From contig JAUQPB010000003.1 of NCBI GenBank assembly GCA_030550585.1, positions 36,333-100,332 on the forward strand: DNA of 64,000 nt, given 5' to 3'. The notes beneath the pieces are model-generated. The model worked only from the letters and a program-made list of their open reading frames with translations. It was not told the DNA's origin and ran no database searches. Made by a program: the position numbers and the translations under genes. Of this stretch, positions 28,795 through 44,003 are shown piece by piece (the first letter of the stretch is position 1; every line of letters begins with the position of its first letter). Source of the DNA: Thermoproteota archaeon (GTDB lineage Archaea; Thermoproteota; Thermoprotei_A; Sulfolobales; Ignisphaeraceae).

Positions 28795-31311
28795 TTATTT
28801 CCTACCCATTATGACAAGCACGTGGTGCTCTTTTCCATCGTTGAACGCTGGCACAACATTTCCTTCTATGGGCTTGCCATCGACTATTATCTGTTTGACT
28901 CCTCTATTCACATGCTCCTCGTTTTTGACTTCTATGATGTATGTGGCATTTCTGAATTTTCTAATCATTTTGAATCCTGGCCAGTCTCTCGGTATGGTTG
29001 GGTCTATGATCAGCCCATCGTATGTTGGCCTTACGCCTAGTATCCACTGGGTTATGGCCACGAACATCCACGAGGCTGTGCCGGTTAGCCACGAGTTTCT
29101 CGCCATTCCAAATCTTGGCGATGCCGGCCCTGCTATCGTCTGTGCGTATACATATGGCTCTGTTCTATGTATGTGGGCTATAGCTTCTCTCACAGATGGG
29201 TTAAGCCTCAAGTAGTAGTCTAGAGCCTGCTCGGCTCTGCCAGCAATGGCCTCTGCTATGATTATCCATGTGTTGGGGTGGCAGAAGATGCTTGCATTTT
29301 CTTTGTGTCCTGGGGGATAGCTCGATATTTCTCCTAGGTGCACATAGTATTTTGTGTATGGTGGCCAGTGTAGGATTATTCCATGTTCTGTTGCCAGATA
29401 CTTTTTAACTGAGTCTAGGGCTTTCAGAGCCATTCCATTGTCGAGGCCTATCCCAGCCATTATGCACATGCCCTGGGGCTCAATGTATATCCTGCCCTCC
29501 TCATTCTCCTTAGACCCTATCTTCCGGCCAAAGGCATCATATGCTCTTAGGAACCACTCACCATCCCACCCATACTTCTTCACCCTCTCAGCCATGTCCT
29601 CAACAAGCTTTCTAAAGTACTCTGCATCCTCTTTGCGGCCTATGCGCTCAGCTATTTCAGCAAGCTCCTTCACAGCCCACACAAATTGACAGGCTATGAA
29701 AACAGACTCTGCTGTCTTGCCATCTGTTCTCTCTGGAGCTGTTTGGAAAGATTCGTCTGGGTTCATAGACATGACGTTGAGGTTTAGACAGTCATTCCAG
29801 TCTGCATGGCCTATCAGCGGCAGTCCGTGTGGACCTCTGTTCTTGTCTATGTATATAACAGCCTTTTTGAGATGCTCATACAAAGGCTCTTCAGTGCCGG
29901 GGGTGTTGTCGTAGGGTGCTTTTTCGAAGAGTATTGAGAAGTCTCCTGTCTCTTTTATGTAGGCGACCGTTGATGCGACTAGCCACAGCGGGTCGTCGTT
30001 GAATCCCCCGCCTATCTCTCTATTCCCTCTCTTTGTGAGGGGTTGGAACTGGTGGTAGGTGCTTCCATCTGGGAGCTGTATAGATGCTAGGTCGATTATC
30101 CTCTCCCTTATTCTCTGCCATAGAGGCGCTAGATGCAAAGCCCCGAGAATATCCTGGTTAGAGTCTCTAAAGCCGACACCTCTAGCGATACCGGATTCGT
30201 ATCCAGAGGCGCTTCTAGCTAGATGGAATGTCATGAATATCTGGTACTGGTTCCAGACATTGACGATTCTGTTTATATGTTCGTTGGGGGTCTCCACATG
30301 TAGATACGATAGCATTTCGTCCCAGAACCTCCTAAGCTCCTCGAATGCCTGTTTAACCCTCTCGGGTTTGAGCCACTCTTTAAGTAGTTGCTTAACCCTT
30401 GTCTTGTTGATGATGTTAGGAGCTATGAATTTCTCCTCCCACGGGTTCTCTGCATAACCCAGTATGAATACTATCTCCTTCTCCTCTCCAGGCTTAAGCT
30501 TGAGTCTAATGTGGTGAGACCCTATTGGGTGGCCGCCATATAAGATGCTGTTCCTCGACACCCCCTCCTCAACTACTATTGGGTTTTCATAGCCTCTGTA
30601 AGGCCCTATGAAAATCTCTTTATCTGTGTCGAACCCTACTATAGGTTCTGAGGATGCGAAGAATGCAAAGTGGTTTCTTCTCTCTCTATAGCCAGTCTTA
30701 TGGTATATGACATTGTCCTCCACCTCAACCTCTGCAATGTTTAGATTCCTCTGAAAGTTTGTCATATCGTCTACGGCGTCCCAGAAGCAGAACTCTACAT
30801 ATGTGAACAGCTGGATATCTGCTTCCCTATCCCTGAGATTCTTTATCTTAAACCACCAGACCTCAAAAGTCTGCTTCAGAGGTACGAAGTATGTTACCTC
30901 TGTCTCTATACCCTTGTACCTAGACCTTATCTTCGTGTAGCCAAGTCCATGTCTACACTCGTAAAAATCAAGAGGCTTTTTCACAGGTTGCCAAGTGGCT
31001 GACCAGTACTCCCCCGTTTCAGCATCTCTCACATATATGTACCTGCCAGGCTGGTCCATTGGGACGCTATGATATCTATACCTCGTTATACGTCTGTACC
31101 TAGGATCTTTATAGAAGCTATAGCCACCACCAGTATTCGATACAATTCCAAAGTACTCTTCTTGTCCAATATAGTTGATCCATGGCGTGGGGGTATCAGG
31201 CCTAGTTATAACATATTCACGTGCAGCGTCATCGAAATAGCCGTAGGGAGAGCCCTTAGAGCGAGAGCTCATACACAGATACCTCAGATGCCTTTTAGCT
31301 ATATGCTCCAA
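28795..31311 (-). CDS. GH94 cellobiose phosphorylase
   Basis: [65 protein letters not shown]. The true start may be the second Met. Confidence 0.92.
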
Positions 31312-31466: not shown

Positions 31467-32240
31467 CTAGGTGTCGTAGATTGATTTGCAGAAAGCTGTT
31501 GTGCCTGCCCCGCTTTCGGCTGGCGTTTTCATTCTCTCTGCAATGAGGTGAAGATTGTTTGTGTAGAGAATTTCTCTGAGTATCTCTTTGCCTTTCATGG
31601 CTTCTGTTCTTAGGCATTGCAGAGGTGTTTGCAGTGCTATATTCAGGACCGCTTCGTCTAGGAAAGGGGCTACAGCATCTATACCTATACACTTAGCTAA
31701 TTCGATTTCTGGATATCTTCCATTTGCAAGTCTTTTAATGTATTCTTCAAGTTCATTACCTGTCAGTGTTAGGAGGAAGGTATAGCCAGCGAATATCTCG
31801 TCCCCACCACTTCCAGTGTAAATGCATTTGCATCCATCTTCAAAGGCTTTTCTGAGCACAGAGTAAAACACCAAATCATTTCTAATCTCTATGCACCCTC
31901 CATCGCCATGGGAGTCTATCCTCTCTTTGCCAATGCATCTAACAATGTCTTGGACTGTCTCCCCCTCTTTCTGCTTATCTATAAAGACATATCTAGTCTC
32001 TATATTGAAGATCTTTGCCAAGTGCTCCACATATATGAGGTCTCTTGGCAAGCCGTTGCTGTATATTGCTATGTAGCCCCTTGGCTTAACACCAGCTGAA
32101 AGAGCTGCTATAAGCACTACTGTTGTGTCTATCCCGCCGCTTAGAGCAATGCAATCACACTTCCTCTTCTCGATTACATCCCTAATCACATTGAATAGAA
32201 TTTTGCTGTATATTGTACAAGGCATTGAGAATCTCATCAA
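31467..32240 (-). CDS. Asparagine-synthase-like C-terminal (PP-loop) domain protein lacking a glutaminase domain
   Basis: ALSGGIDT, TGSGGDEIFAGY, APFLD, GKEILRE. Confidence 0.82.
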   Translation of the reverse strand: MMRFSMPCTIYSKILFNVIRDVIEKRKCDCIALSGGIDTTVVLIAALSAGVKPRGYIAIYSNGLPRDLIYVEHLAKIFNIETRYVFIDKQKEGETVQDIVRCIGKERIDSHGDGGCIEIRNDLVFYSVLRKAFEDGCKCIYTGSGGDEIFAGYTFLLTLTGNELEEYIKRLANGRYPEIELAKCIGIDAVAPFLDEAVLNIALQTPLQCLRTEAMKGKEILREILYTNNLHLIAERMKTPAESGAGTTAFCKSIYDT

Positions 32241-32860
32241 ATCAGCCTCAATATCTTGTATCCGTCGTAGTTCTCTACATCAACAATCTTATAGCTCAAA
32301 CTAGCTTTGTGCAGAGGACCCGACAAAACGATTGTGTGGTACTCCCCCTTTTCACCTAGAGGGTCAACACCAATACTCTTAGCATTCTCGGCAAATGCAT
32401 AAACATTGTCACGATCCAATACCACGCCAAGCCACTTGCCCAAACCATTTACACACCCTATAACCATAGGCTTTAGCCCATCTTCGATCTCCTTATAAAG
32501 AAGATCCTCTGGATCCATACCCCAAAGAGGCTCAACAAGAGCGGCACCAACCTCTTTAGCGATATTTTCCATATACCTGAGATGATCCTCAATATAAACA
32601 TCGCCGGCTATAAGAGTATCTACACCCAAACTCCTAAGAAACCCCACAGTCTCAACAAACTCCCTGCCCTTACCAAGCTTAACAACAGCCACCGGTATCC
32701 CCATCAAAAGAATTGTCTCAACAGTCTTCCCCAAATTAACTAGGTGGGGACTTGGCCTAGGAAAGTCGTATACCAGTACAAGCCCTATGTCAACTTGGAT
32801 TCCAGAACGATATATTGCATAGTAAGAGTCTTTACCACCCGAAAGAAAGGCTACATGCAA
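32237..32860 (-). CDS. Diphthine--ammonia ligase (Dph6/MJ0570)-like PP-loop ATPase
   Basis: FLSGGKDS, AGDVYIEDH, EPLW, DPLGEKGEYHT. Confidence 0.85.
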   Translation of the reverse strand: MHVAFLSGGKDSYYAIYRSGIQVDIGLVLVYDFPRPSPHLVNLGKTVETILLMGIPVAVVKLGKGREFVETVGFLRSLGVDTLIAGDVYIEDHLRYMENIAKEVGAALVEPLWGMDPEDLLYKEIEDGLKPMVIGCVNGLGKWLGVVLDRDNVYAFAENAKSIGVDPLGEKGEYHTIVLSGPLHKASLSYKIVDVENYDGYKILRLI

Positions 32861-32862
32861 TG

Positions 32863-33516
32863 CTAGTCACCTGATTTCTGGAAATGCTTCAATTTGAACT
32901 CCATGGTAACATTCTTAAGGACAGTCTTATGACATGTTGTTCTCGGGGGTAGCAATAGATTCTTTGATACAATTCTGTATATGTCATCTACTACAAGCTT
33001 TGGAGGTGCCAAACAAATATCGTGAGCTAGGCAGGTTTCAGGGTCAACGGGGGTCTTAGTTAAAGAGTTAAGTATTTTGTGAAACCCTAATTCTTTAATG
33101 GCGAGATAGAAGTCTATTCTGTCAATCCTTGCCTCAACCACTTCATAACCCATTTTAAAAATCAGCAAACCATCTCCTCTCTTAGCAGAAAACTCAGCTT
33201 CGCTAACTATTTTCTTCAAAAGTCTTTGATCCTTGTACCACCTAGAAGCTGTATACATCCAACCACCAACATCAGAAATGTCAGAGCTGTAGTCAGCTAA
33301 TACCACGGGTATGTGTCTTGCCCCAAGAATTTTCAGGGCACTGACTCTATGATGCCCATCGATAACTATATACCTTTTTTCATCAACTATAACAGGCTTT
33401 CTAAGGATCCCTGCCATCGAGAGTTCTCCCAAAATGTTTAGAAGCCTCTGTTTCTCCACATCTTCATGGGAAATAAGCATGTCTATGGGAACCATTTCGA
33501 TCCTTAGGCGACTCAA
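32863..33516 (-). CDS. ParB/Srx-fold protein, SerK/SbnI-like free amino-acid kinase
   Basis: ISHED, KPVIVD, VIDGHHRVSAL, and C-terminal LPPRTTCH resembling the SerK PKTTRH motif. Confidence 0.72.
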   Translation of the reverse strand: MSRLRIEMVPIDMLISHEDVEKQRLLNILGELSMAGILRKPVIVDEKRYIVIDGHHRVSALKILGARHIPVVLADYSSDISDVGGWMYTASRWYKDQRLLKKIVSEAEFSAKRGDGLLIFKMGYEVVEARIDRIDFYLAIKELGFHKILNSLTKTPVDPETCLAHDICLAPPKLVVDDIYRIVSKNLLLPPRTTCHKTVLKNVTMEFKLKHFQKSGD

Positions 33517-33548
33517 TACTTTTCACCATGTGCTACACAATATGTGGA

Positions 33549-34508
33549 CTACCTAGCCAGATATATAGTTATCGATAATACATTTATAATCAATATATAT
33601 GTAGCCACATTTAAAATGGCAAGCCCAAGAGCCCTCTTAATATCTCCCCCTGTTGGAAGAGGAAAACCCTCTCCTATTACATATGATCCTATCTTCTCGA
33701 GCCTCACAGATAGACAGCCAGAGGCTGCTGCCATTGGATGACCTGCATTAACACTTTCAGTAGCTCTTCTATATCTTTTGTATGTATCCCAGCTTCTTCT
33801 TATAGACCCTTTTACGATTGGGGATAGCAGTATTATGAGCAGGGCCTCTAGTCTTGCGGGAACGAAGTTTATGATTGTGTCTGCTTTTGCTGAGAACCAG
33901 CCCACATCTCTAAATTCCTCTTCTTTGTATCCGAGTGCAGAGTCGAGGGTGTTGGCTATTCTCTGTGTGAGTGCTCCTATAGGTCCGAGTATGAGGTAGT
34001 ATAGGAGTGGGGATATAAAGCCATCGACAAGACTCTCAAAAAGCGATTCTATTGCTGCTGATGCTATGTGTCCTTCGCCAAGGTTTTTGACCTCTCTTCT
34101 AACAATGTTTGAGACTTCTGTTCTTGCACATGTTAGATCTCCTTTGGCTAGACATATGTAGACGTTTTTGACGTGGTTGTATAGCAGTTTGAACGATGTG
34201 GAGACCTTGAGTATGTATGCTGAGAGAATGATCCAGGCAATTCTGCTAAACATATCCGCTATGTATAGCGCCAAAGAGTATAGAGCTACGTGGCTTGCAA
34301 CAACAGCAAACCATATAGCAATGCCCCAAAGCCTTGTTCTGGGAAGTGATCTATGTAACTTTAAAGCCATTGCATATGATGTGTGGACAGGGTGTATATA
34401 GTATAGAGCTCCCTCGTGCCTCGGATATGCAAGGTCTAGGGCCAGGGCTAGAAACAGTATGACTACAAATTCTGGGTAGCTCTGGGGAAGGAGAAAGTCT
34501 AGAGCCAT
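33549..34508 (-). CDS. cbiB: Adenosylcobinamide-phosphate synthase CbiB
   Basis: HPVH, AAIESLFESLVDGFISPLLY, ANTLDSALGY, SVNAGHPMAA. Start at ATG 34508 overlaps the cobS stop. Confidence 0.9.
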   Translation of the reverse strand: MALDFLLPQSYPEFVVILFLALALDLAYPRHEGALYYIHPVHTSYAMALKLHRSLPRTRLWGIAIWFAVVASHVALYSLALYIADMFSRIAWIILSAYILKVSTSFKLLYNHVKNVYICLAKGDLTCARTEVSNIVRREVKNLGEGHIASAAIESLFESLVDGFISPLLYYLILGPIGALTQRIANTLDSALGYKEEEFRDVGWFSAKADTIINFVPARLEALLIILLSPIVKGSIRRSWDTYKRYRRATESVNAGHPMAAASGCLSVRLEKIGSYVIGEGFPLPTGGDIKRALGLAILNVATYILIINVLSITIYLAR

Positions 34509-35287
34509 AGACTGGCACCCAGAACAAGAGCTGTTAGTATAGCTGCATAGCTCAGCTCGTTTGCAAATCCAAGGACATCTCCATTGGCATAGCCAAGGGT
34601 TTTCATACATAAAACAATTGTTGTATATGCAGAGATTGTTAGTGCTGCTAGCACTAGAATAGAGGTTGTAGCTCCTATGTAAATAGACAAGAAGGTTGCA
34701 TATGTTATCGAAAGCGATGCAAGTAAAGCGCCAACTATATCAACAGTCCTCAACCCTTTTCTAAAGAGTCTTCCCAACCCATCTGGAGGCTCCCTGCAAG
34801 CATATGCCACAACAGCCATTGTTATGGGAGACCACGTCTCGGCAACTAGAACAATTCTTGTCGCCTTCCATAGATCTGAAAGGTGAATGGCTTGTAGCGT
34901 TATTGAGTAGAGCCATAGTGCAAACAATGCAAATACTGCTATGGCGTAGGATCCTCTGAATCTATCCTTAACAACTTTGCTGGCATCAGCACCAAATCTG
35001 TGGGCTAGTACAGCCTCGGAGAAGTCTATGAATCCATCTGCGTGGATAAACCCTTGTATAATGTAGTGCATTGCCACTACGGAAAACGCTTGGATATACG
35101 GTGCATCAATGTGGAGCAAGGCTGAGAGTATTATTGGTGTAGCAGTGAAAACACCTCTGACAAAGCCTATAATGGGTAACATATAGAGGGATTCGAATGA
35201 GATCTCTGCCCCCAGATATCTTCGTGGAATTGGCAGCGAGGTTAGAAAAGCTAGTAGGGATAGAAAGTCTCTTAGCTTTTTAGCCAA
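34499..35287 (-). CDS. cobS: Cobalamin (5'-phosphate) synthase CobS
   Basis: AFLTSLP, GFIHADGFIDFSEA, DGLG, GYANGDVLG. Confidence 0.9.
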   Translation of the reverse strand: MAKKLRDFLSLLAFLTSLPIPRRYLGAEISFESLYMLPIIGFVRGVFTATPIILSALLHIDAPYIQAFSVVAMHYIIQGFIHADGFIDFSEAVLAHRFGADASKVVKDRFRGSYAIAVFALFALWLYSITLQAIHLSDLWKATRIVLVAETWSPITMAVVAYACREPPDGLGRLFRKGLRTVDIVGALLASLSITYATFLSIYIGATTSILVLAALTISAYTTIVLCMKTLGYANGDVLGFANELSYAAILTALVLGASLWL

Positions 35288-36338
35288 CGCCCATCACAAT
35301 CTTTAGTGCTTCGACAAGCTCATTGTTTTCTCTAGGGCTTCTAATAGCTATTCTAATGTAGTTTGAGTCCAATCCCCTGAAGCTACTACAGTCCCTCAGA
35401 GCCAGGCCCATCTCCCTAAGCTTCTCAACTATTTGTCTACCACCATCTATCTTGATTAGGAGAAAATTTGTGACGCTTTCAAAAACCTTTGCACCAAGTG
35501 ATTCAAGTATTTTTCTAACCCTCTCCCTCTCACTATCTATATACTCTCTAGATCTTTGAATAAAGCTCTTCAGCTCCTGCTCATACACAGAAATGTTTTT
35601 ACCCAAGCACTCAGCCAAGCTATTCACATTCCATGGCTGTCTCAAAGCCTCTACCCTCTCCAATAAATCTATGTCATTTGTGTATAGAAAGCCTAGTCTC
35701 AGGCCTGGAAGCGAAAGCCATTTCGTTAGCGATCTCACAACAACAATGTTTTTTGGTATTTCACCCCCAACTTCAATTGGGCATCTACTGCAAAGCTCTA
35801 TATAGGCCTCATCGACAAGGCTCCTAGCACTACAGTTGGATAGGTAGCTAAATAGTCTTTCTCTATCAATGTATAGCCCAAGGGGGTTACTAGGATTTGT
35901 TATCACTATCAACCCATCTCTATCGCTACAAGGCTTCTGCAAGTCTGAGAGGTCTATGTGGAACCCATCTGATGTTCTTCTATAGAATATAGGTCTATAT
36001 TCTAGGCCGAGAGCCTTTGAAAGATCTTCGTATTCGCCGTAGGAAGGCTCTAAAACGTATACCCTCCTCGCTTTTGAAGCGATTACAGCAAGGTTTATAG
36101 CCTCGCCAGCTCCTGCAGTTGGAACTATATACTCTTCTTTGCAACGATAGAACCTTGCTAGAGACCTCTTCAAATCTCTGTATGTGTAGTCGGGGTACTT
36201 CTCCAAAACCCTTTGGCTAAAGCATGTGGCAAGAATCTCTAAAACTGTTTTTGGTGGGCCAAGCGGATTTAGATTGGAGCTGAAGTCTATTCTAGCTTCT
36301 CTGTCCCCTCCATGGATCCGCATTGGCTTTTCGCCCAC
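35280..36338 (-). CDS. cobD: L-threonine-O-3-phosphate decarboxylase CobD (PLP)
   Basis: HGG, DFSSNLNPLG, NPSNP, VDEAY, RSLTKWLSLPGLRLG, LRDCSSF. Confidence 0.88.
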   Translation of the reverse strand: MGEKPMRIHGGDREARIDFSSNLNPLGPPKTVLEILATCFSQRVLEKYPDYTYRDLKRSLARFYRCKEEYIVPTAGAGEAINLAVIASKARRVYVLEPSYGEYEDLSKALGLEYRPIFYRRTSDGFHIDLSDLQKPCSDRDGLIVITNPSNPLGLYIDRERLFSYLSNCSARSLVDEAYIELCSRCPIEVGGEIPKNIVVVRSLTKWLSLPGLRLGFLYTNDIDLLERVEALRQPWNVNSLAECLGKNISVYEQELKSFIQRSREYIDSERERVRKILESLGAKVFESVTNFLLIKIDGGRQIVEKLREMGLALRDCSSFRGLDSNYIRIAIRSPRENNELVEALKIVMGVG

Positions 36339-36832
36339 AGCAAATCCTCTACAGTGTCTATATCTCTAAGCTCTTTCGATTCCTCAAAATATATGTTTTC
36401 CCAAGTGCCTTTAGATCTCCTGAAGAGGGATATTCCAGACTCTCTACACACACCATCTTTGCAGATAGCCAGCGTCACCACATCAGCTTTGGAGTTGGTT
36501 ACTTTGTCCAGAAAGCTTTTGACTGCATCAACTGTTAGGAAGGGTATGTCAGCTGGCAGAACCAGTACCGGGAACCTGGCTTTCTCTAGTATGTAAGCCA
36601 AGTCAGTGACATAGTCTATCCCTGGACACTCAACAACATCGACCTTTTTCAGAGATTTGATTAAGGGTACATCCTCGCTTCTGGCACACACAACAATCCT
36701 TCCATCGATGCCAAGGCTTAGGGCAACCTCTAACGAGACCTCGATTAGCTTTCTATTGCAAATCTCAAGAAAATATTTTTTAACACCTCCAAGCCTCGAG
36801 CCCTTGCCGCCAGCCATGATTATAACATCCAT
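36287..36832 (-). CDS. cobY: Adenosylcobinamide-phosphate guanylyltransferase CobY
   Basis: IMAGGKGSRLG, ADIPFL, DIDTVEDL; located in the cob operon. Confidence 0.82.
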   Translation of the reverse strand: MDVIIMAGGKGSRLGGVKKYFLEICNRKLIEVSLEVALSLGIDGRIVVCARSEDVPLIKSLKKVDVVECPGIDYVTDLAYILEKARFPVLVLPADIPFLTVDAVKSFLDKVTNSKADVVTLAICKDGVCRESGISLFRRSKGTWENIYFEESKELRDIDTVEDLLWAKSQCGSMEGTEKLE

Positions 36833-36858
36833 TGGAATCCCGCAAAAGCTTGCCTATA

Positions 36859-37947
36859 TCAATGGCTATTCAGATACTTGTCATATACCCTGCTAAGAAC
36901 ACTTCCAACGACTGCAGCAACAATGTCGTCTGTCATAGGTGGAAGATTTTCCAGCTCCTCGAAAACCCCTTCCTCTTTCAGTCTTTCTATCCAGTAGTAT
37001 GCTAAAAGCCCTTTGAACCCATTTACATACTCTGCAATTGCTTTGCCTATAAGCTCGTCAGCTATGATCTTGGGCGTGTCAACTCTATACTCCTCCTCGC
37101 TAATTCCCGGAAATAGGTTTAGTGCCATCAGCATCTCAGCCAACCTAGCACCCCTCACAACTATGCAGATATTCGGATCCTTGAAAACATCCTCAAACTC
37201 TCTTCTAAGAATCTTCTCCACCTCTCCACTACTGAGCATGGGTATTGGAGCCTTGTTGTAGGCCTTTACCGCAATCTTCAATATATCATCGATGGATCTG
37301 AGCCCAACACTATTCACAAAATACTCTATGCAGTTCGTACCCACTACAAATTTTGACAAAGCCTTTAGAGTGGCTACAGCAGCTGTGAAACCAACATCAG
37401 TTGCTATACCACCAAACCTTTCGCCACCCTGAGGAGCTGCAACCATTGTTGCATCAGATGCTGTTCCTATTGAAGGGGCTGTTAAACACATTGGGCCTGC
37501 CAAACCCATTGCCAACCCCTTTACCTCAGACACCAACCTGTAGAGATCGAGTAAACCAACCTCATCAAGAGGTTTATTGACAATAACGGCAACATTTATG
37601 GTTCCAACAGCCATCGCATTGCTCGGAATGTTAGCATCTATGCACGAAGGCTTATCAACTCCAAAGGTTACATAGACCTCTGCTATAACATCTCTAAAAA
37701 TGTGTGTTGCATGCCCATACTCCCTTACATCAACTGCTGTAAGAAATATTGTAGATTTTTCATAGTCTATGCCAACAGATTTTGCAGTGTCTTTGCAGTA
37801 CCCATCTAGATCAACATATTCGAAATCTTTTGGAACCCTTCTAAACACTATGTACCTAACATCCTTGTATATCTTTGGGCATCCAGCAGTCGACAAAACC
37901 TTGTATTCCTTCTCCAAATCGATGACCAGAGTGTCGCTGTTTCTCAT
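36859..37947 (-). CDS. cbiS: Bifunctional CbiZ amidohydrolase / CobZ alpha-ribazole phosphatase fusion (CbiS-type)
   Basis: N-half FLTAV, GTINV, GTASDA (CbiZ); C-half DPNI, ADELIGKAIAEYVNG, LPPMTDD (CobZ). Confidence 0.8.
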   Translation of the reverse strand: MRNSDTLVIDLEKEYKVLSTAGCPKIYKDVRYIVFRRVPKDFEYVDLDGYCKDTAKSVGIDYEKSTIFLTAVDVREYGHATHIFRDVIAEVYVTFGVDKPSCIDANIPSNAMAVGTINVAVIVNKPLDEVGLLDLYRLVSEVKGLAMGLAGPMCLTAPSIGTASDATMVAAPQGGERFGGIATDVGFTAAVATLKALSKFVVGTNCIEYFVNSVGLRSIDDILKIAVKAYNKAPIPMLSSGEVEKILRREFEDVFKDPNICIVVRGARLAEMLMALNLFPGISEEEYRVDTPKIIADELIGKAIAEYVNGFKGLLAYYWIERLKEEGVFEELENLPPMTDDIVAAVVGSVLSRVYDKYLNSH

Positions 37948-37964
37948 AAAGGCCTTAGCCGTAG

Positions 37965-39074
37965 CTATACCACCTTCACAATCCTCTCATACTCTCTATA
38001 CACAGCATGCTTAAGCTCATTAACATCAACACCTTTTAAAATGGCTAGAAGCGATGTACCTCCAGCCCCCACACCCTCTTTAACAAACCCGTCTTCATAT
38101 GCTCTAAGCCCATTGAATGGAGCGTCGCTAAAGTCTAGCTCGACATAGGCAAAGGTTATGTTAGGCACCACCATCTTTATGAACCTAGTTATCTCCGCCC
38201 CCCTGTCGCTGTATATCCATTTTGTGGTGGCTAAAACGAGTCTTTGCTCATCGAATCTAGGATCTATGGCTTTCATCAAGGCGAGTGCTGCGAGCATTTG
38301 GGTTCCACCAGCAAGAATAACAGTTGCTCTTGATTTCAGTGCTCCAAGGGCTAGACCAGCAATAGCTATGTGGACAGGGTCTCCAATAACATCATTTATT
38401 TTGAAGGGGTCTTCAGATTGTCCGAGCCTCTTCAGAGCCTCTTCAACAACAGCTTTTTTAATGTTTAGCGGATTTTCTTTTGCAGAGCTACTGATAATGT
38501 TATAGGCGTTGTATCCAAGTCCTTGTAGAATGGATAGAGCTGTTGTTGTTCCACCTGGAATGCTCTCCCCAATTAGCACGACACTGGCTATAGAGCCCAT
38601 TGCTCTGCCAACTAGAGTTGCCTCATCGAAAATTTTTCTCGATGTTCCATGGGACAACGCATCCTCTCTATCTATTCTACCCCCAACACAGCTACTTGAG
38701 AGGCTTATCAAAGGTATTCTAGGCTTTATGTAAGAGCCTGCATCAATAACCATGAAAGGTGTTTGAGAAAGCTGTAAGGCTGTTCTCGTTATTATAGCAG
38801 GTGTTGGTATGCCCGTTGGGGTTGTCGGTATGATGTCTATAGATACAGGCTTCCCAAAATAGAGATACTCCACATCGAGAGCAGGCGTAAACAGCGTTGC
38901 GATACTCATAGAGCCTGCTAGTGATATATTTGGAATTGTAGAGGTCATAGTGGATCCTATAACGTATAGCGCAATTGAAGAGCTTTGGAAAGCAGAGATG
39001 CTGTCTAGAGACCCTTGCAGAACCCTAATCCCCTTAACCATATGCGTCACACAAAAGGGTCTGGCTATAAACAT
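37965..39074 (-). CDS. cobT: Archaeal-type nicotinate-nucleotide:base phosphoribosyltransferase CobT
   Basis: TPALDVE, PTPAIIT, GESIPGGTTTA, LAGGTQM, YEDGFVKEGVGAGG. Confidence 0.9.
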   Translation of the reverse strand: MFIARPFCVTHMVKGIRVLQGSLDSISAFQSSSIALYVIGSTMTSTIPNISLAGSMSIATLFTPALDVEYLYFGKPVSIDIIPTTPTGIPTPAIITRTALQLSQTPFMVIDAGSYIKPRIPLISLSSSCVGGRIDREDALSHGTSRKIFDEATLVGRAMGSIASVVLIGESIPGGTTTALSILQGLGYNAYNIISSSAKENPLNIKKAVVEEALKRLGQSEDPFKINDVIGDPVHIAIAGLALGALKSRATVILAGGTQMLAALALMKAIDPRFDEQRLVLATTKWIYSDRGAEITRFIKMVVPNITFAYVELDFSDAPFNGLRAYEDGFVKEGVGAGGTSLLAILKGVDVNELKHAVYREYERIVKVV

Positions 39075-39097
39075 TTCATTAGTTGTCGCCTATAGTC

Positions 39098-39892
39098 TCA
39101 TATCTGAACCCCCTTTTCGAGGGGCTCCAATGGAATGACAATCTTCCTGCCATCAACATTTGCAATAGCTATTTTAACACCATAGACCTTCTCAAGAATA
39201 TCCTTCTTTAGAACCTCTTCAGGAGCTCCACAGGCAACCACCGACCCGCCATTCATCACTATTATCTTGTCTGCGTATAGAGAGGCCAGATAAATGTCGT
39301 GTATAGCTACAATAGCCACAATGTTATCTCTCTTTACAACAGATTTGATATAGTCTAGAACCTCTAGCCTATACCTCAAATCTAAGAAAGCTGAGGGCTC
39401 GTCTAAAAGCATAACCTTGGGCTCTTGGATAAGAGCCCTCGCAATTAAGACTCTCTGCAACTCGCCACTACTAAGCTGATCTAGTCTCCTATCGAGGAAC
39501 TGCTTTATGTTTAGCTGCCTTGAAACCTTTTCAACTATCTCAAGATCTTTTGTTGATATGGAGAAGCTTAGCATGTTTTGGTGGGGGTATCTAGCTGTTA
39601 GGAGAAACTCTAGAACTGTTGAGGGTATGGATCTAGATATGTGTGGGTCTACATAGGAGAGAAGCCTGCTTATATCTTTGGGCGACAAACTCGAAACAGC
39701 TTTTCCATCGATATAAACAACACCTTTTCTAGGCTTTACAACAGATGCTATTGTCTTTAGAAGAGTTGTTTTACCCGCTCCGTTAGGACCTATAACAAAT
39801 GCTAGTTCGCCAGAGGATATGGACAAGGTTACTCTATCCAGAGCCTTCACAGAGTTGTACCAAACTTCAACATCTTCAACAACTATCTTCAT
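39098..39892 (-). CDS. btuD: Corrinoid ABC transporter ATPase (BtuD-like)
   Basis: GPNGAGKT, LSSGELQRV, LLDEP; FepC/BtuD type, in the cob operon. Confidence 0.85.
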   Translation of the reverse strand: MKIVVEDVEVWYNSVKALDRVTLSISSGELAFVIGPNGAGKTTLLKTIASVVKPRKGVVYIDGKAVSSLSPKDISRLLSYVDPHISRSIPSTVLEFLLTARYPHQNMLSFSISTKDLEIVEKVSRQLNIKQFLDRRLDQLSSGELQRVLIARALIQEPKVMLLDEPSAFLDLRYRLEVLDYIKSVVKRDNIVAIVAIHDIYLASLYADKIIVMNGGSVVACGAPEEVLKKDILEKVYGVKIAIANVDGRKIVIPLEPLEKGVQI

Positions 39893-40932
39893 TGTCTCAT
39901 CCTCTTGGCTATTAGATAGGCGAGAAAAGGTGCTCCTATAATCGATGTTACAACGCCTAGGGGGAGCTCCCCAACAGCACCACTATACATAGAAACCAAT
40001 CTGACAACAATATCTGCAAATGTTGTTAGAATCCCCCCGACAAGAGCTGTTATTGGTATGGAGAATCTGTGGTCAGAGCCCACAAAGAACCTTGCTATGT
40101 GGGGTGCTGCAAGACCAACAAAACCTACGATGCCTATGAAGGCTATTGTAATGGCTGTTAAGAGAGATGCTATACCTGTTGATATTAGGGATATGAGTTT
40201 TGGGTTAAAGCCAAGCTGCTTCGCATAGTCATCGCCGTATAGATATGCGTTCAATGGTTTGAATAGAGCTATCGAGAATATTAGCAATGCTATGGTCGGA
40301 TAAGCTATGAACGCTATATCTCTGTACAACACAGTGTTTGTAGAGCCCATCAAGAAGTACACAATTGGTGTTCCAATAACCCTTTGAACTATGTACAGAA
40401 GAACATGTGAAACACCTGAGAATAGAGATGCCACAGCTATGCCTGCTAGAACCAGCGCCAGGCTACCCCCTCCAGCCAGTTTTGCAAGCATCATTGTCAT
40501 GAAATAGCCTAGTAGAGCCCCTATAAACGCCACCACCACAAGGTTATATCTGTAAACAGCTGTTGATGGAGATAATATAATTGTTAGCGAGATAGCTGTG
40601 AGTGCAGTTGATGAAAGGCCAAATATGTATGGGTCTGCCAAGGGGTTTCTAGTGGTGGTCTGCATAAGAATGCCTGCTATGGATAGGGCAACACCGCAGA
40701 AGAAAGAGGCTACAGTTCTAGAAACTCTTAGCATAGCCACTAAACGAACGCTGCTATCGCTAGTTGCCATGCCAAAGGGGCTTAGAAAAACTGTTTTGAA
40801 AATCTCCTTGGGATCCAGCATCGAAGGGCCTATAGATAGAGATGCGATTGTTATGGCCATGGATAGAACTATGAGTGTAAAAAGCGAAATTAAAAAATGT
40901 TTTACCTTTCTTTTGTAGAGCTCTAAAGCCAT
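39889..40932 (-). CDS. btuC: Corrinoid ABC transporter permease (BtuC/FecCD)
   Basis: RNPLADPYIFG, GIVGFVGLAAPHIAR, ELPLGVVTSIIGAP. Confidence 0.87.
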   Translation of the reverse strand: MALELYKRKVKHFLISLFTLIVLSMAITIASLSIGPSMLDPKEIFKTVFLSPFGMATSDSSVRLVAMLRVSRTVASFFCGVALSIAGILMQTTTRNPLADPYIFGLSSTALTAISLTIILSPSTAVYRYNLVVVAFIGALLGYFMTMMLAKLAGGGSLALVLAGIAVASLFSGVSHVLLYIVQRVIGTPIVYFLMGSTNTVLYRDIAFIAYPTIALLIFSIALFKPLNAYLYGDDYAKQLGFNPKLISLISTGIASLLTAITIAFIGIVGFVGLAAPHIARFFVGSDHRFSIPITALVGGILTTFADIVVRLVSMYSGAVGELPLGVVTSIIGAPFLAYLIAKRMRQ

Positions 40933-40935
40933 GTT

Positions 40936-42204
40936 CTATGCAACCTCTATAGGTGGTGTTGAAACAGCTTCCCCTATTTCTAGCACCTCAAGATTTGCCA
41001 CAGCGATGTTAACTACATCAGCTCTCTGTACCTCTCCGAAAATCTCTGGGTGGATAACCTTGGAGAGTATATCCAAAGCCTCAACAATCCTTGGGCCGGG
41101 TCTGCTAACAACATCGTCTGCTTCTCCCATCAACAGATAAACCCTTCCATTCTTCCAAGCGGTTGTATTAACAAGAGGTGTTGCAACAAGCTCTTGATAG
41201 ACAGACTTTGGATCCACATCGTGTACTGTGACAATTATTATCTCAGGATCCTTAGACAAGATAAATTCGTAGCTTAGCGTAGGCCATTTGCTATAGCCAG
41301 ACGCTATATTGTTTCCACCAGCTGTTGTTATAACCCAATTGATAAATGTGTCTCCACCAGTGCTGTACAAGCCCCATGATGGTGGCCCTACAAGCCACAA
41401 AACCCTTGGCTTGGATGCATTGACCAACTTGCTGCTTATCTCATCTATCTTTCTCTGCATAGACTCTACAATCTCTTTAGCCTTATCCTCAACACCGAAG
41501 ATCTGGCCCAGCGTCATGAGATCTGCATAGATATCATACTGGTTTCTAGCTGCATCACATATGAGGAAGAATGTCTTTATCCCAGCCTCTTCAAGCTTTG
41601 CTCTAAACCCTGTCTCCTGAGGTGATACATCCCTGCACATAAAGACCACATCGGGCTTTAAACTAATTATCTTCTCCACATCCAGTGTCCACGGACCACC
41701 AACAACAGTTATCTTACCTTGTTTAACAAGGTCTAGAACCTCTGGTGGATAATTGGAGTAGGAGTCCACTCCAACAACTCTATCCCCAACTCCTATAGCA
41801 AATAGATCCTCTGTTATGCTAGGAATTGTGGATACAACTCTTTTTGGAGGTTCATTAAATGTTATTTCTCTTCCCAATGCATCAACAATTGTTCTTGGCC
41901 ATGTTACTTGTACTGTTTCAACAATTGTTGTTGGGATAGATGTTGAGACAGTTTTAATCGTAATGATTGTTGTTGGTAGTGTAGCTGAGGTGGTAAACGT
42001 TAGAGTTGTTAACGAAGCAGATGCAATTGTTGTATATAGTGTTGTGTACATCGTTGTAGTTTGTACTATAGAAGTGTAGATAGGAGATGTTGAGGTTATT
42101 GTGATGGTTGTTGTTGGCTTTGGAGCTATGATGTTTGGTGTATACCCTATTGCAATACCTATTATCAATGCTATTGCAATCAAGGCTATGTGTTTTGCCT
42201 GCAT
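40936..42204 (-). CDS. btuF: Corrinoid-binding protein BtuF with Thr-rich stalk
   Basis: N-terminal TM, ~70-aa Thr-rich linker, DALGR, PKRVVS, SRPGPRIVEAL. Confidence 0.85.
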   Translation of the reverse strand: MQAKHIALIAIALIIGIAIGYTPNIIAPKPTTTITITSTSPIYTSIVQTTTMYTTLYTTIASASLTTLTFTTSATLPTTIITIKTVSTSIPTTIVETVQVTWPRTIVDALGREITFNEPPKRVVSTIPSITEDLFAIGVGDRVVGVDSYSNYPPEVLDLVKQGKITVVGGPWTLDVEKIISLKPDVVFMCRDVSPQETGFRAKLEEAGIKTFFLICDAARNQYDIYADLMTLGQIFGVEDKAKEIVESMQRKIDEISSKLVNASKPRVLWLVGPPSWGLYSTGGDTFINWVITTAGGNNIASGYSKWPTLSYEFILSKDPEIIIVTVHDVDPKSVYQELVATPLVNTTAWKNGRVYLLMGEADDVVSRPGPRIVEALDILSKVIHPEIFGEVQRADVVNIAVANLEVLEIGEAVSTPPIEVA

Positions 42205-42344: not shown

Positions 42345-43145
42345 TTGGTGTTACAACTGAGAATTGTTAGCCTGTCTCCAGCTGTTACCGAAACCCTTGT
42401 CCTCTTGGGACTTGAAGATGAGATTGTTGGTATAACACCATGGTGCAGAATGTACTTGAATAATCCAGCAGAAAAAGAGATTGCAGGAACATATCTTCAC
42501 GTGCCCATCAAAAAGCTCAAGGATCTCAGCCCTGATATAGTCTTTCTTCAGTCGAGGGTGCACGACAAGATCTTCAGCGATGTCAGGTCTGCTGGGTTTA
42601 ATGCATATTTAATGCCTTTGCCAACCAATGTCAATGCCATAATATCGCATATAGTCCTTGATGTGGGTGCAATCACTGGTAGATATTATGAGTCTAGGAG
42701 GTTAGCTGAAGAGCTTCTAGACAAGGTTATGGATATATATAGGAGGTCTAGAGGTGGGAAGAGGCTAAGGATATATGTTGAGTATCTGTGGCCCGACAAA
42801 ACATATTCGACAAGCGGTGCTCTTACATACATAGACGATGGTATTTGGATAGCTGGTGGAGAGAACATCTTTCATAGTGTGCCAAAGGAATTCTTTAATC
42901 CTAGAGATGAAGATATTGTAGCAGGGGATCCAGATTTGATACTTGTGAATATAGAGCCGCCATGGGAATCCCTGACAGTGGATAAGTATAAAGAGATTAG
43001 AGAGCCTCTATCAGAGTTGAAGGCGTTCAAGTATAACAGGATTCTGTTGGTTAAAGAGACTAGAGATGTTAATCTAGCGCACTTTGGGCCTTCGTTCATA
43101 TCGACAGTAGACTGGTTGTCGAAGACATTAAGGCAATACCTATAG
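42345..43145 (+). CDS. Second BtuF-like helical-backbone receptor without signal peptide
   Basis: Begins directly with RIVSLSPAVTETL; AGGENIF, HFGPS. Confidence 0.8.
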   Translation: MVLQLRIVSLSPAVTETLVLLGLEDEIVGITPWCRMYLNNPAEKEIAGTYLHVPIKKLKDLSPDIVFLQSRVHDKIFSDVRSAGFNAYLMPLPTNVNAIISHIVLDVGAITGRYYESRRLAEELLDKVMDIYRRSRGGKRLRIYVEYLWPDKTYSTSGALTYIDDGIWIAGGENIFHSVPKEFFNPRDEDIVAGDPDLILVNIEPPWESLTVDKYKEIREPLSELKAFKYNRILLVKETRDVNLAHFGPSFISTVDWLSKTLRQYL

Positions 43146-43157
43146 CAGAAACAGAAT

Positions 43158-44003
43158 GTGCATAGCAGGTGCGCGAAACTGGGTATAGACATGGATTCGA
43201 CAAGTAGAGATAAAGGCGTTAGGACAAGAGTCTATCACATAACATTCTATGACCACGACAACTCTGCGTACATCCAATTCCTCGGATGTAATCTCAGCTG
43301 TCTGGGTTGCATAAGAAAGAGGTATCTGTGGGACCACCACATCGAGAACATAGACCAGGCAATAGATGCGAAAACAGCGATCAGAACCCTAACGCTTGGC
43401 GAACTAGAAGATATTTTGAGAAAAGCTGTGGATGTGCTTGGCCTCAGAAGAGCTGTTCTTGGAGGGGGAGAGCCAACTTCAGATCCAAGCTTCTGCCAAA
43501 TCATCGAGATCCTTGGTGAACTGGGCCTCAGCATTTCAATTCTTACAAACGGCTATGAACTAGATAGGGTATTAGGCTGCATACCTCCAAAGACTTTGAT
43601 AGAGCTCAGCATCAAAAGCATAGACAGCACAAAATACAGTTTATATACAGGTGGCGGGGATCTAAATAAGGTTTTGAAAAACTTTGAAATGTTGCTCAAC
43701 ACACAACTAAATGTTGTGGTAGAGACAATACTCATTCCACAATTCAACGATGTTGACGATATCGAGAAACTGGCTATGTACATAGCTGGCAAAGACCCTG
43801 GAATACCCCTCATAATAGATGAATATATACCTGTGCCCCAGACGCCCTGGGGTAGGCCAAGCAGAGAAAGTCTGTTGGATGCATATAGAAGAGCTAGGAA
43901 GTATCTACACATAGTTATAGTCAGATCATCGTATCCAGAGTTTCACACATCCAAGAAGTTGGGAAACACCTTGATACTCTACCCTTCTAGTCAAATCCGC
44001 TAG
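43158..44003 (+). CDS. Radical SAM protein (PFL-activase-like)
   Basis: GCNLSCLGC, LGGGEPT, LTNG, ETILIPQFND. Confidence 0.85.
   Translation: MHSRCAKLGIDMDSTSRDKGVRTRVYHITFYDHDNSAYIQFLGCNLSCLGCIRKRYLWDHHIENIDQAIDAKTAIRTLTLGELEDILRKAVDVLGLRRAVLGGGEPTSDPSFCQIIEILGELGLSISILTNGYELDRVLGCIPPKTLIELSIKSIDSTKYSLYTGGGDLNKVLKNFEMLLNTQLNVVVETILIPQFNDVDDIEKLAMYIAGKDPGIPLIIDEYIPVPQTPWGRPSRESLLDAYRRARKYLHIVIVRSSYPEFHTSKKLGNTLILYPSSQIR

Follow-up and report, generated by a model that had tools for sequence, protein, structure and literature searches.

Known kinases and the locus under study

The L-threonine-O-3-phosphate (L-Thr-P) used for the cobamide linker has, to our knowledge, a known source in three cases only: PduX of the Salmonella type, BluE of the Rhodobacterales and the bifunctional CobD of Methanosarcina. 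The last of these is an archaeal answer to the missing-kinase problem, with the function credited to CobD itself: MM2060 of Methanosarcina mazei is reportedly both an L-threonine kinase and an L-Thr-P decarboxylase. The kinase activity of the M. mazei CobD depends on its Cys-rich C-terminal domain. PduX and BluE (EC 2.7.1.177) both bear the GHMP motifs I to III according to PMC10906522, and bluE is called a pduX homologue in the text of Fang et al. (PMC6249242). We describe here a gene located at positions 32863..33516, on the minus strand, of a 64,000-nucleotide (nt) stretch of DNA from a Thermoproteota archaeon of the Ignisphaeraceae (assembly GCA_030550585.1, contig JAUQPB010000003.1, positions 36,333-100,332); this whole stretch is hereafter called the window. 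The gene lies in a cobamide salvage operon directly downstream of cbiB, and its product is a candidate for the same reaction and the same place in the pathway as PduX and BluE, that is, the supply of L-Thr-P to CobD, with a fold unrelated to theirs.

The closest characterised relatives of this product are kinases of free serine. SerK of Thermococcus kodakarensis (TK0378, 5X0B), which is ADP-dependent, and its Pyrococcus orthologue (1VK1) have the same full-length two-domain fold as our model of the window protein, with template modelling (TM) scores of 0.65-0.74, and SerK also shares the position of the His-Glu catalytic dyad, the DGHHR motif and the C-terminal P-x-T-T-x-H. However, SerK and the window protein are only about 20% identical, the score obtained with the SerK model (NF053625, E 1.2e-14, 54.1 bits) stays below the equivalog cut-off of 380 bits, and SerK belongs to serine/cysteine metabolism whereas the window gene is found in a cobamide salvage context. 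SbnI, the ATP-dependent free serine kinase and regulator of the staphyloferrin B system (5UJD, 5UJE, 6NR6), gives TM scores of up to 0.77 and is the best full-length match of the profile built from the clade described below. By analogy, the window gene would resemble sbnI in being placed inside a cofactor or secondary-metabolite operon and in feeding a pyridoxal phosphate enzyme with a phospho-amino acid, but SbnI is bacterial, about 35 residues longer and part of a siderophore pathway, and its model also scores the window protein below cut-off (NF033589, 5.8e-11, 42.2 bits for a cut-off of 350). In the literature that we searched, we found no link between SerK-like or ParB-fold proteins and cobamide synthesis; the supplements of PMC5120207 and PMC3541065 may list homologues or neighbours.

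The gene downstream of cbiB and its predicted product

The open reading frame (ORF) encodes 217 amino acids (aa) from a TTG start. An earlier note on this DNA had described it as bearing the motifs ISHED, DGHHR and LPPRTTCH, as lying just 3' of cbiB and as sharing a run with cobD, cobS and cobY. All three motifs were found in the sequence (H17 and E18 of ISHED, residues 53-57 and residues 189-196, respectively), as was the position next to cbiB, and Pfam and NCBIfam assignments define a same-strand run of 12 genes: btuF-like, btuC, btuD, cobT, cbiS (cbiZ and cobZ), cobY, cobD, cobS, cbiB, the kinase-like gene, a DUF71/TTX_0299 gene (hereafter DUF71-B12) and an AsnB-like gene.

The ORF is a genuine gene, not a chance frame, since it has homologues, profile relatives and a high-confidence structural model, and since no ORF of at least 60 aa is present on the opposite strand within 32863..33516. 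A word-index search yielded just five proteins, the two nearest homologues with E values of 1e-103 and 1e-100; one close homologue, from a metagenome-assembled genome (MAG) of Ignisphaera, is annotated merely as "ParB N-terminal domain-containing protein". A profile search was then used, and among 1.84 billion representatives it found 2281 relatives at E<=1e-3, 810 at E<=1e-10 and 20 at E<=1e-30. The AlphaFold (AF2) model, built from 31 sequences, has a mean predicted local distance difference test (pLDDT) value of 95.9 and a predicted TM score (pTM) of 0.89. The start of the gene is located 32 bp past the cbiB stop codon. A GGTGA motif resembling a Shine-Dalgarno sequence was read within this spacer at 33523..33527 (minus strand), 6 nt upstream of the TTG, and may act as the ribosome-binding site; the gene is presumably co-transcribed with cbiB. 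It is the sole SerK-like gene of its genome (1.76 Mb, 99.9% complete).

At the sequence level, the similarity of the window protein to the ParB/Srx fold is weak in Pfam (ParBc_2, E 0.006, under the cut-off), but NCBIfam, the sequences of the Protein Data Bank (PDB) and fold comparison all show it clearly. With the Noc model TIGR04285 the protein reaches 15.6 bits (E 0.0079) for a cut-off of 315. The PDB sequence matches include 5x0b (6.8e-9), 1vk1 (1.3e-7) and 5uje (3.2e-7), and such searches with the single protein tie its 80-90 N-terminal residues to SerK and SbnI. When the profile of the clade was used instead, the alignment with SbnI became full-length (residues 6-215, E 3.2e-16). Foldseek comparison of the AF2 model with SerK (5x0k, 5x0b), 1vk1 and SbnI (5uje, 6nr6) also covered the whole protein (224-236 columns, TM 0.65-0.77, E of about 1e-12 to 2e-10). 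In contrast, ParB, Noc and sulfiredoxin structures aligned with about 80 N-terminal residues only, the TM scores of ParB and Noc being about 0.3. ParB and Noc, which are CTP-dependent DNA clamps, carry a helix-turn-helix (HTH) and a C-terminal dimerisation domain; no HTH or other DNA-binding domain was detected in the window protein by Pfam, NCBIfam or Foldseek, and no GHMP match by Pfam or NCBIfam. Because both domains match SerK and SbnI while ordinary ParB and Noc match the N-terminus alone, the product is predicted to be a two-domain enzyme of the SerK/SbnI type rather than a ParB for DNA partition. The kinship with SerK and SbnI that had been read from the motifs thus holds for a two-domain homologue, by PDB sequence, Foldseek and clade profile together. 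The window protein is not alone in scoring under the SerK and SbnI equivalog cut-offs: none of 40 other SerK-like proteins of Thermoproteota reached them, the top score being 104.5 bits.

The catalytic Glu and the nucleotide-binding residues expected of such an enzyme are present. H17-E18 of the window protein aligns with H29-E30 of SerK, and it is at E30 that the PDB entries E30A and E30Q are mutated; as the titles of these entries suggest, we take E30 to be the catalytic base of SerK. E18, D53, G54, H56 and R57 are invariant in the 31 family members aligned. The C-terminal P-x-T-T-x-H is retained, but the Arg of the SerK sequence KTTRH is Cys195 in the window protein and Tyr or Leu in the other members of its clade. 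Outside the clade, [KR]-[TSA]-T-R-H is kept in 11 of the 12 sequences of the alignment, the exception (Leu) being that of G094 (G numbers designate sampled genomes, L numbers fetched loci and f numbers families). The clade has in addition three signatures of its own, C-x6-C, KRG and HxTxLK, that are differences from SerK.

A clade of SerK-like genes linked to the cob cluster

We sampled 401 Thermoproteota genomes, 214 of which contain a SerK-like gene of some kind, and fetched about 20 kb around 40 of these genes. In a maximum-likelihood tree the window protein grouped with those of G211, G235, G184 and G054 in a single clade, with a Shimodaira-Hasegawa-like approximate likelihood ratio (SH-aLRT) support of 99 and a branch length of 1.16. 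A scan of species-representative genomes found the G184 contig again (L097) and six more clade loci (L091-L096), which belong to three Ignisphaera MAGs, one Desulfurococcaceae MAG, Zestosphaera tikiterensis and one Methanodesulfokora record. The clade therefore comprises 11 loci: the window, G211, G235, G184, G054 and L091-L096.

In 7 of these 11 loci (window, G235, L091, L092, L093, L094 and L096), the clade gene lies directly 3' of cbiB on the same strand, and in 9 of the 11 it is in or beside the cob cluster. In Zestosphaera (L096) it stays with cbiB while the DUF71/AsnB pair is found elsewhere in the cluster. In G211 the gene is 2.9 kb from cbiB. In G184 it is 2.1 kb from cbiB, between a btuC-btuD-radical S-adenosylmethionine (SAM) stretch and the genes for DUF71-B12, the AsnB-like protein and a PduO-type adenosyltransferase, and this run is convergent with that going from cobT to cbiB. 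The L095 gene is at a contig end, CbiB being encoded on another contig of the same genome. Lastly, in G054 the clade gene and the two genes for PP-loop proteins, DUF71-B12 and AsnB-like, are 13.5 kb from a complete cob cluster; this trio (L041:8152-9141) has a D-glutamate cyclase-like (GLUCM-like_C) gene before it and a DGC-domain gene after it.

We then looked at SerK-like genes outside the clade. None of the 36 non-clade loci contained a cob biosynthetic gene in the flanks that were fetched. Some of these genes adjoin PALP (CysK-like) genes, or genes for a SerA-like 2-hydroxyacid dehydrogenase and a class-V aminotransferase, and a serine/cysteine gene context is what the text of PMC5120207 describes for SerK. 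Others have different neighbours: those of family f3 are placed between CBS, Mut7-C and SSB-like genes, and those of f5 between HhH-GPD, GT2 and Lhr helicase genes. The linkage to cob genes that the earlier note proposed to check thus holds for the clade of the window protein, and does not extend to SerK-like proteins or to archaea at large, the clade being present in 5 of the 401 genomes.

The distribution of CbiB pointed in the same direction. CbiB is present in 186 of the 401 sampled genomes, including 36 of the 56 from the order of the window. It is present in each of the five clade genomes sampled and in the genome of L095, and in L092-L094 and L096 the locus itself includes it. In family f2, a SerK-like gene is present in 16 of 16 genomes and CbiB in only one, G184. 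Of the three f2 genomes viewed in context (L040, L074 and L075), G184 alone has a clade member, and its match is the only f2 match listed at E below 1e-30. Besides the clade member, G184 has a second SerK-like match in a 306-aa frame; the two congeners of G184 have no CbiB, and the sole SerK-like match of G259 is in a 307-aa frame. Conversely, all 56 genomes of family f10 have CbiB and none has a SerK-like gene. Across the phylum, co-occurrence of the whole SerK-like superfamily (214 of 401 genomes) with CbiB (186 of 401) is uninformative, and the view that SerK-like proteins are general cobamide enzymes was rejected. We also rejected the presence of the clade in every genome with a short CobD, G022 having no SerK-like match whatsoever.

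The clade spans the genus of the window, Desulfurococcaceae MAGs and Zestosphaera, mostly hot-spring archaea. The cob genes of the window (31467-42204) share 50-65% identity with those of G184, G054 and a Desulfurococcaceae MAG but only 31-54% with those of G211, which is of the same genus (comparison with L038, L040, L083 and L094). Being closer to those of other families than to those of a congener, these genes suggest that the cob cluster, kinase-like gene included, moves laterally as a unit.

Other possible sources of L-threonine phosphate

The earlier note had seen neither PduX nor BluE in the window, and we looked for a homologue elsewhere in the genome. The genome contains six GHMP-domain genes, whose best family matches are a galactokinase-like protein, archaeal shikimate kinase, homoserine kinase, mevalonate kinase, pantoate kinase and beta-RFAP synthase. 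As all six are assigned to other enzymes, no GHMP kinase of the PduX/BluE type was found in this 99.9%-complete genome.

The second possible source is a bifunctional CobD, for which we take the PF04071 domain to be the mark in methanogens. The window CobD is the short form (352 aa) and lacks the Cys-rich PF04071 tail that the alignment reveals in the CobD of family f16, where it forms a C-terminal domain of about 110 residues (L084:8614-10002; L086:6361-7752). Elsewhere PF04071 occurs as a free-standing ORF of 122-158 aa adjoining cbiB. It was detected in 24 of the 401 genomes, 22 of which have it either as part of CobD or at most about 2 kb from the listed CbiB match; the exceptions are G029, which has no CbiB match, and G374, in which PF04071 and CbiB are on different contigs. 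None of the 56 sampled genomes from the order of the window has PF04071, the Methanocaldococcus jannaschii and Methanosarcina acetivorans controls being positive. Compared with PDB sequences, the window CobD matches 1lc5, the Salmonella L-Thr-P decarboxylase, at 1.2e-40 and 6oux at 7.4e-23.

The organism also reads as salvage-only for corrinoids, since neither CbiC nor a CobQ-sized GATase_3 amidotransferase gene was found in the genome. Three SerA-like dehydrogenases are encoded in it.

Proposed function

The most likely function of the gene, to which we give a probability of about one half, is that of an L-threonine kinase dedicated to cobamides and feeding CobD. The protein would be a soluble SerK/SbnI-family (ParB/Srx-fold) kinase that was co-opted into cobamide salvage and probably acts on a new substrate. 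We infer its kinase activity, the choice of L-threonine and the phosphate donor from sequence comparisons and gene context. In the pathway that we propose, BtuFCD would import incomplete corrinoids and CbiZ would trim them to cobyric acid, and this cleavage of salvaged corrinoids would make a new linker arm necessary. The candidate kinase would use a nucleotide (ATP, ADP or CTP) to phosphorylate free L-threonine on its side-chain hydroxyl, Glu18 being the general base, like Glu30 in SerK, and with the nucleotide held by the DGHHR domain. CobD would then decarboxylate L-Thr-P to aminopropanol phosphate, and CbiB would join this arm to adenosylcobyric acid.

Three considerations make us prefer threonine to serine. 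L-Thr-P would have no other source in the cell, whereas phosphoserine is an ordinary metabolite, as the SerA-like genes suggest. The clade has also diverged strongly from the SerK-type genes associated with serine pathways. Finally, the window CobD resembles 1lc5 more closely than 6oux, which points weakly to L-Thr-P.

Several observations weigh against this proposal. Both characterised members of the family use L-serine, and SerK of T. kodakarensis rejects threonine according to PMC5120207. An archaeal SerK-like protein is described in PMC12704722 as binding CTP and not ATP, and it is for this reason that we leave the donor as ATP, ADP or CTP. With the Arg of the SerK motif replaced by Cys, Tyr or Leu, the substrate pocket of the clade would differ from that of SerK, and a substrate without a carboxylate, for instance aminopropanol, is conceivable. 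As to distribution, only 5 of the 186 CbiB-positive genomes carry the clade, so the gene is not generally required for the function of CobD and CbiB. The close relatives G022 and G170, with a short CobD and a similar cluster, have no clade member at their cob cluster, and G271, of the same genus as the window, has only a 180-aa SerK-like ORF (L081:15630-16172, minus strand) from which about 85 middle residues are missing. This short ORF keeps the N-terminal domain and a PPKTTRH tail, adjoins a btuF-like gene and cobT, and may be a minimal or decaying form. Lastly, the clade gene adjoins DUF71-B12 in 8 of the 11 loci versus cbiB in 7, and in G054 it accompanies the DUF71-B12/AsnB-like pair and not cbiB and cobD. 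This adjacency makes other roles possible for the kinase-like gene.

The salvage operon and its surroundings

The genes that would act with the candidate are all encoded on the minus strand. The cbiB gene (33549..34610), for adenosylcobinamide-phosphate synthase, matches Pfam CobD_Cbib at 1.3e-75 and NCBIfam NF002281 at 336.7 bits (cut-off 273). Its longest ORF shares 112 bp with cobS, and no Pfam match is seen before residue 52; translation probably begins at an internal codon further downstream. The cobS gene (34499..35287), for cobalamin-5'-phosphate synthase, was assigned by Pfam CobS (5.8e-29) and, under the cut-off, by TIGR00317 (5.7e-24). It is preceded by the gene for the CobD-type pyridoxal phosphate decarboxylase (35280..36338), of the L-Thr-P decarboxylase family, whose best NCBIfam match is TIGR01140 (242 bits for a cut-off of 290.55), and by that for a CobY-like nucleotidyltransferase (36287..36832; Pfam NTP_transf_3, 1.9e-18; archaeal CobY model of NCBIfam, 6.8e-15, under the cut-off). 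Further upstream are a cbiS-like fusion of CbiZ amidohydrolase and CobZ phosphatase (36859..37947; Pfam CbiZ, 1.6e-36; NF038002 CbiS, 210 bits for a cut-off of 250; TIGR03161 CobZ, 6e-28) and a cobT of archaeal type (37965..39074; TIGR00303, 324.9 bits, over the cut-off of 240). The transport genes come first in the run: a btuF-like gene for a substrate-binding protein (40936..42204; Pfam Peripla_BP_2, 2.1e-42), a btuC-like gene for a FecCD permease (39889..40932; Pfam FecCD, 6.2e-74) and a btuD-like gene for an ATP-binding cassette ATPase (39098..39892; Pfam ABC_tran, 5.3e-30).

At the other end of the run, two genes follow the kinase-like gene. The first (32237..32860), after a 2-bp gap, encodes a PP-loop ATP pyrophosphatase of the DUF71-B12/TTX_0299 family, with 277 bits for NF052347 (cut-off 250) and just 87 bits for the Dph6 model. 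We rejected it as the Dph6 of the organism, a better Diphthami_syn_2 gene being located at C4:576398; it is a paralogue of Dph6. The second (31467..32240), which overlaps the first by 4 bp, encodes an AsnB-like PP-loop protein reduced to the C-terminal domain of asparagine synthase (Pfam Asn_synthase, 5.4e-15), with no glutaminase domain.

Three other genes surround the operon. Divergent from its btuF end, a radical SAM gene (43158-44003, plus strand, 281 aa) encodes a protein with 48% identity to the radical SAM protein of G184 (L040:10656-11474), whose gene is flanked by btuD and the SerK-like gene, and with 34% identity to one adjoining DUF71-B12 in G254 (L085:5537-6304); this gene is a repeated neighbour of cob clusters. 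A second, short Peripla_BP_2 protein of 266 aa is encoded at 42345-43145 (plus strand), also divergently from the operon, and in G271 a 266-aa Peripla_BP_2 gene is found between cobT and the short SerK-like gene. On the same strand as the operon and 155 bp past it, a gene for a GH94 protein of the cellobiose/chitobiose-phosphorylase type (28795-31311, minus strand, 838 aa) is probably unrelated to it.

Alternative explanations

In the earlier note, the choice was between a threonine kinase and a serine kinase. Its interpretation is supported in part, as regards the family, the linkage within the clade and the absence of a rival kinase; the linkage is confined to a narrow clade, and the note had overlooked the DUF71-B12 partner. 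It is this partner that supplies the alternative which survives best, unlikely as we judge it. The protein could act with the DUF71-B12 and AsnB-like PP-loop enzymes in another step of corrinoid salvage or remodelling that makes no free phospho-amino acid, for example by phosphorylating or nucleotide-activating a corrinoid or nucleotide-loop intermediate, or by aiding the ATP-dependent amide formation of CbiB. In addition to the adjacency of the clade gene and DUF71-B12 in 8 of the 11 loci, and to the G054 trio 13.5 kb from cbiB, the two PP-loop genes are associated with cobamides in their own right. DUF71-B12 and the AsnB-like gene are together in or beside the cob cluster in 7 of 10 loci from further genomes (G271, G027, G054, G296, G136, G022 and G170, of families f1, f4, f6, f16 and f19), and in G254 (f31) DUF71-B12 is at the cob cluster with no AsnB-like gene detected. 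Furthermore, CbiB is present in 32 of the 34 genomes with a TTX_0299 match over the cut-off. The AsnB-like gene is paired with DUF71-B12 in 9 of the 10 cob-related loci L081-L090 and in 4 of the 7 clade loci L091-L097; in G139 the pair was found with no cob gene in the 20 kb fetched. A role in B12 salvage for DUF71-B12, a subgroup of COG2102, is a prediction put forward in 2012 by de Crecy-Lagard et al. (PMC3541065), who also describe its clustering with btuCDF and cbiB. The main text of that paper mentions no ParB/SerK-like neighbour ("ParB" occurs 0 times; the supplementary tables may list neighbours), and in this main text we saw no description of a constant archaeal AsnB-like partner. Against such a partnership, most lineages have the PP-loop pair without the kinase, the L096 kinase follows cbiB with the pair elsewhere, L092 and L093 have no AsnB-like gene, and the active site is built like that of a kinase acting on the hydroxyl of a small molecule.

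Next in order, and improbable in our view, is that the protein is an L-serine kinase. Phosphoserine would then be converted by the CobD of the operon into ethanolamine phosphate, giving norcobamides with a linker 14 Da lighter. A CobD homologue of Sulfurospirillum is indeed specific for phosphoserine, and the window CobD scores under the equivalog cut-off for L-Thr-P decarboxylase (242 vs 290.55 bits). The fold and the catalytic residues are common to the window protein, SerK and SbnI, and the two characterised relatives are strictly serine enzymes, SerK of T. kodakarensis rejecting threonine (PMC5120207). However, the clade is on a long branch apart from the SerK-type genes linked to serA, serC or cysK, the second SerK-like paralogue of G184 suggests that the two proteins have different jobs, and phosphoserine may arise without a kinase in a genome with SerA-like genes. 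The greater similarity of CobD to 1lc5 than to 6oux also speaks for threonine.

A related view, which we hold to be a little more doubtful still, extends the role of the PP-loop enzymes. The SerK-like kinase, DUF71-B12 and the AsnB-like protein would form a three-enzyme salvage module of hyperthermophiles that rebuilds or repairs corrinoid side-chain amides, the linker of the f side chain included, independently of CobD and CbiB or in parallel with them. The kinase would then act on a corrinoid-bound or linker hydroxyl, or would supply a phosphorylated amine for the PP-loop ligases.

Rather remote is a kinase for (R)-1-aminopropan-2-ol (or ethanolamine) that would recycle the alcohol released by CbiZ into aminopropanol phosphate for CbiB, thus bypassing CobD. 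The position right after cbiB, whose product consumes aminopropanol phosphate, in 7 of the 11 loci and the presence of CbiZ in the same operon are compatible with such a role, and the loss of the KTTRH Arg would, speculatively, suit a substrate without a carboxylate. On the other hand, CobD is kept in every clade locus with a complete cluster, and no amino-alcohol kinase is known in the SerK/SbnI family.

Least probable of all is the absence of any catalytic role in cobamide synthesis, the gene being that of a housekeeping serine kinase of cysteine/serine metabolism placed there by chance or of a ParB-fold regulator of the operon akin to SbnI. In favour of this view, the gene has no SerK-like paralogue in the genome, other SerK-like clades adjoin PALP, SerA-like and class-V aminotransferase genes, and SbnI is labelled a bifunctional transcriptional regulator and phosphoserine synthase in NCBIfam and the PDB. 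Against it, chance adjacency explains neither 9 of 11 loci across several groups nor the pattern of family f2, no HTH or DNA-binding domain was detected, and all catalytic residues are invariant.

Significance

The proposal that the clade gene encodes a threonine kinase for CobD is thus a specific hypothesis that is well supported by genomic context and narrow in distribution. Its practical reach is limited by the rarity of the clade (5 of 401 genomes and six further loci, most of them from hot-spring MAGs). In the order of the window, no PduX-like gene was found in the one genome examined and PF04071 is present in none of 56 genomes, yet CbiB is present in 36 of the 56. If the proposal is true, a ParB/Srx-fold kinase would be a further and structurally unrelated answer to the problem of L-Thr-P supply, and the SerK/SbnI family would be extended from serine to another substrate.

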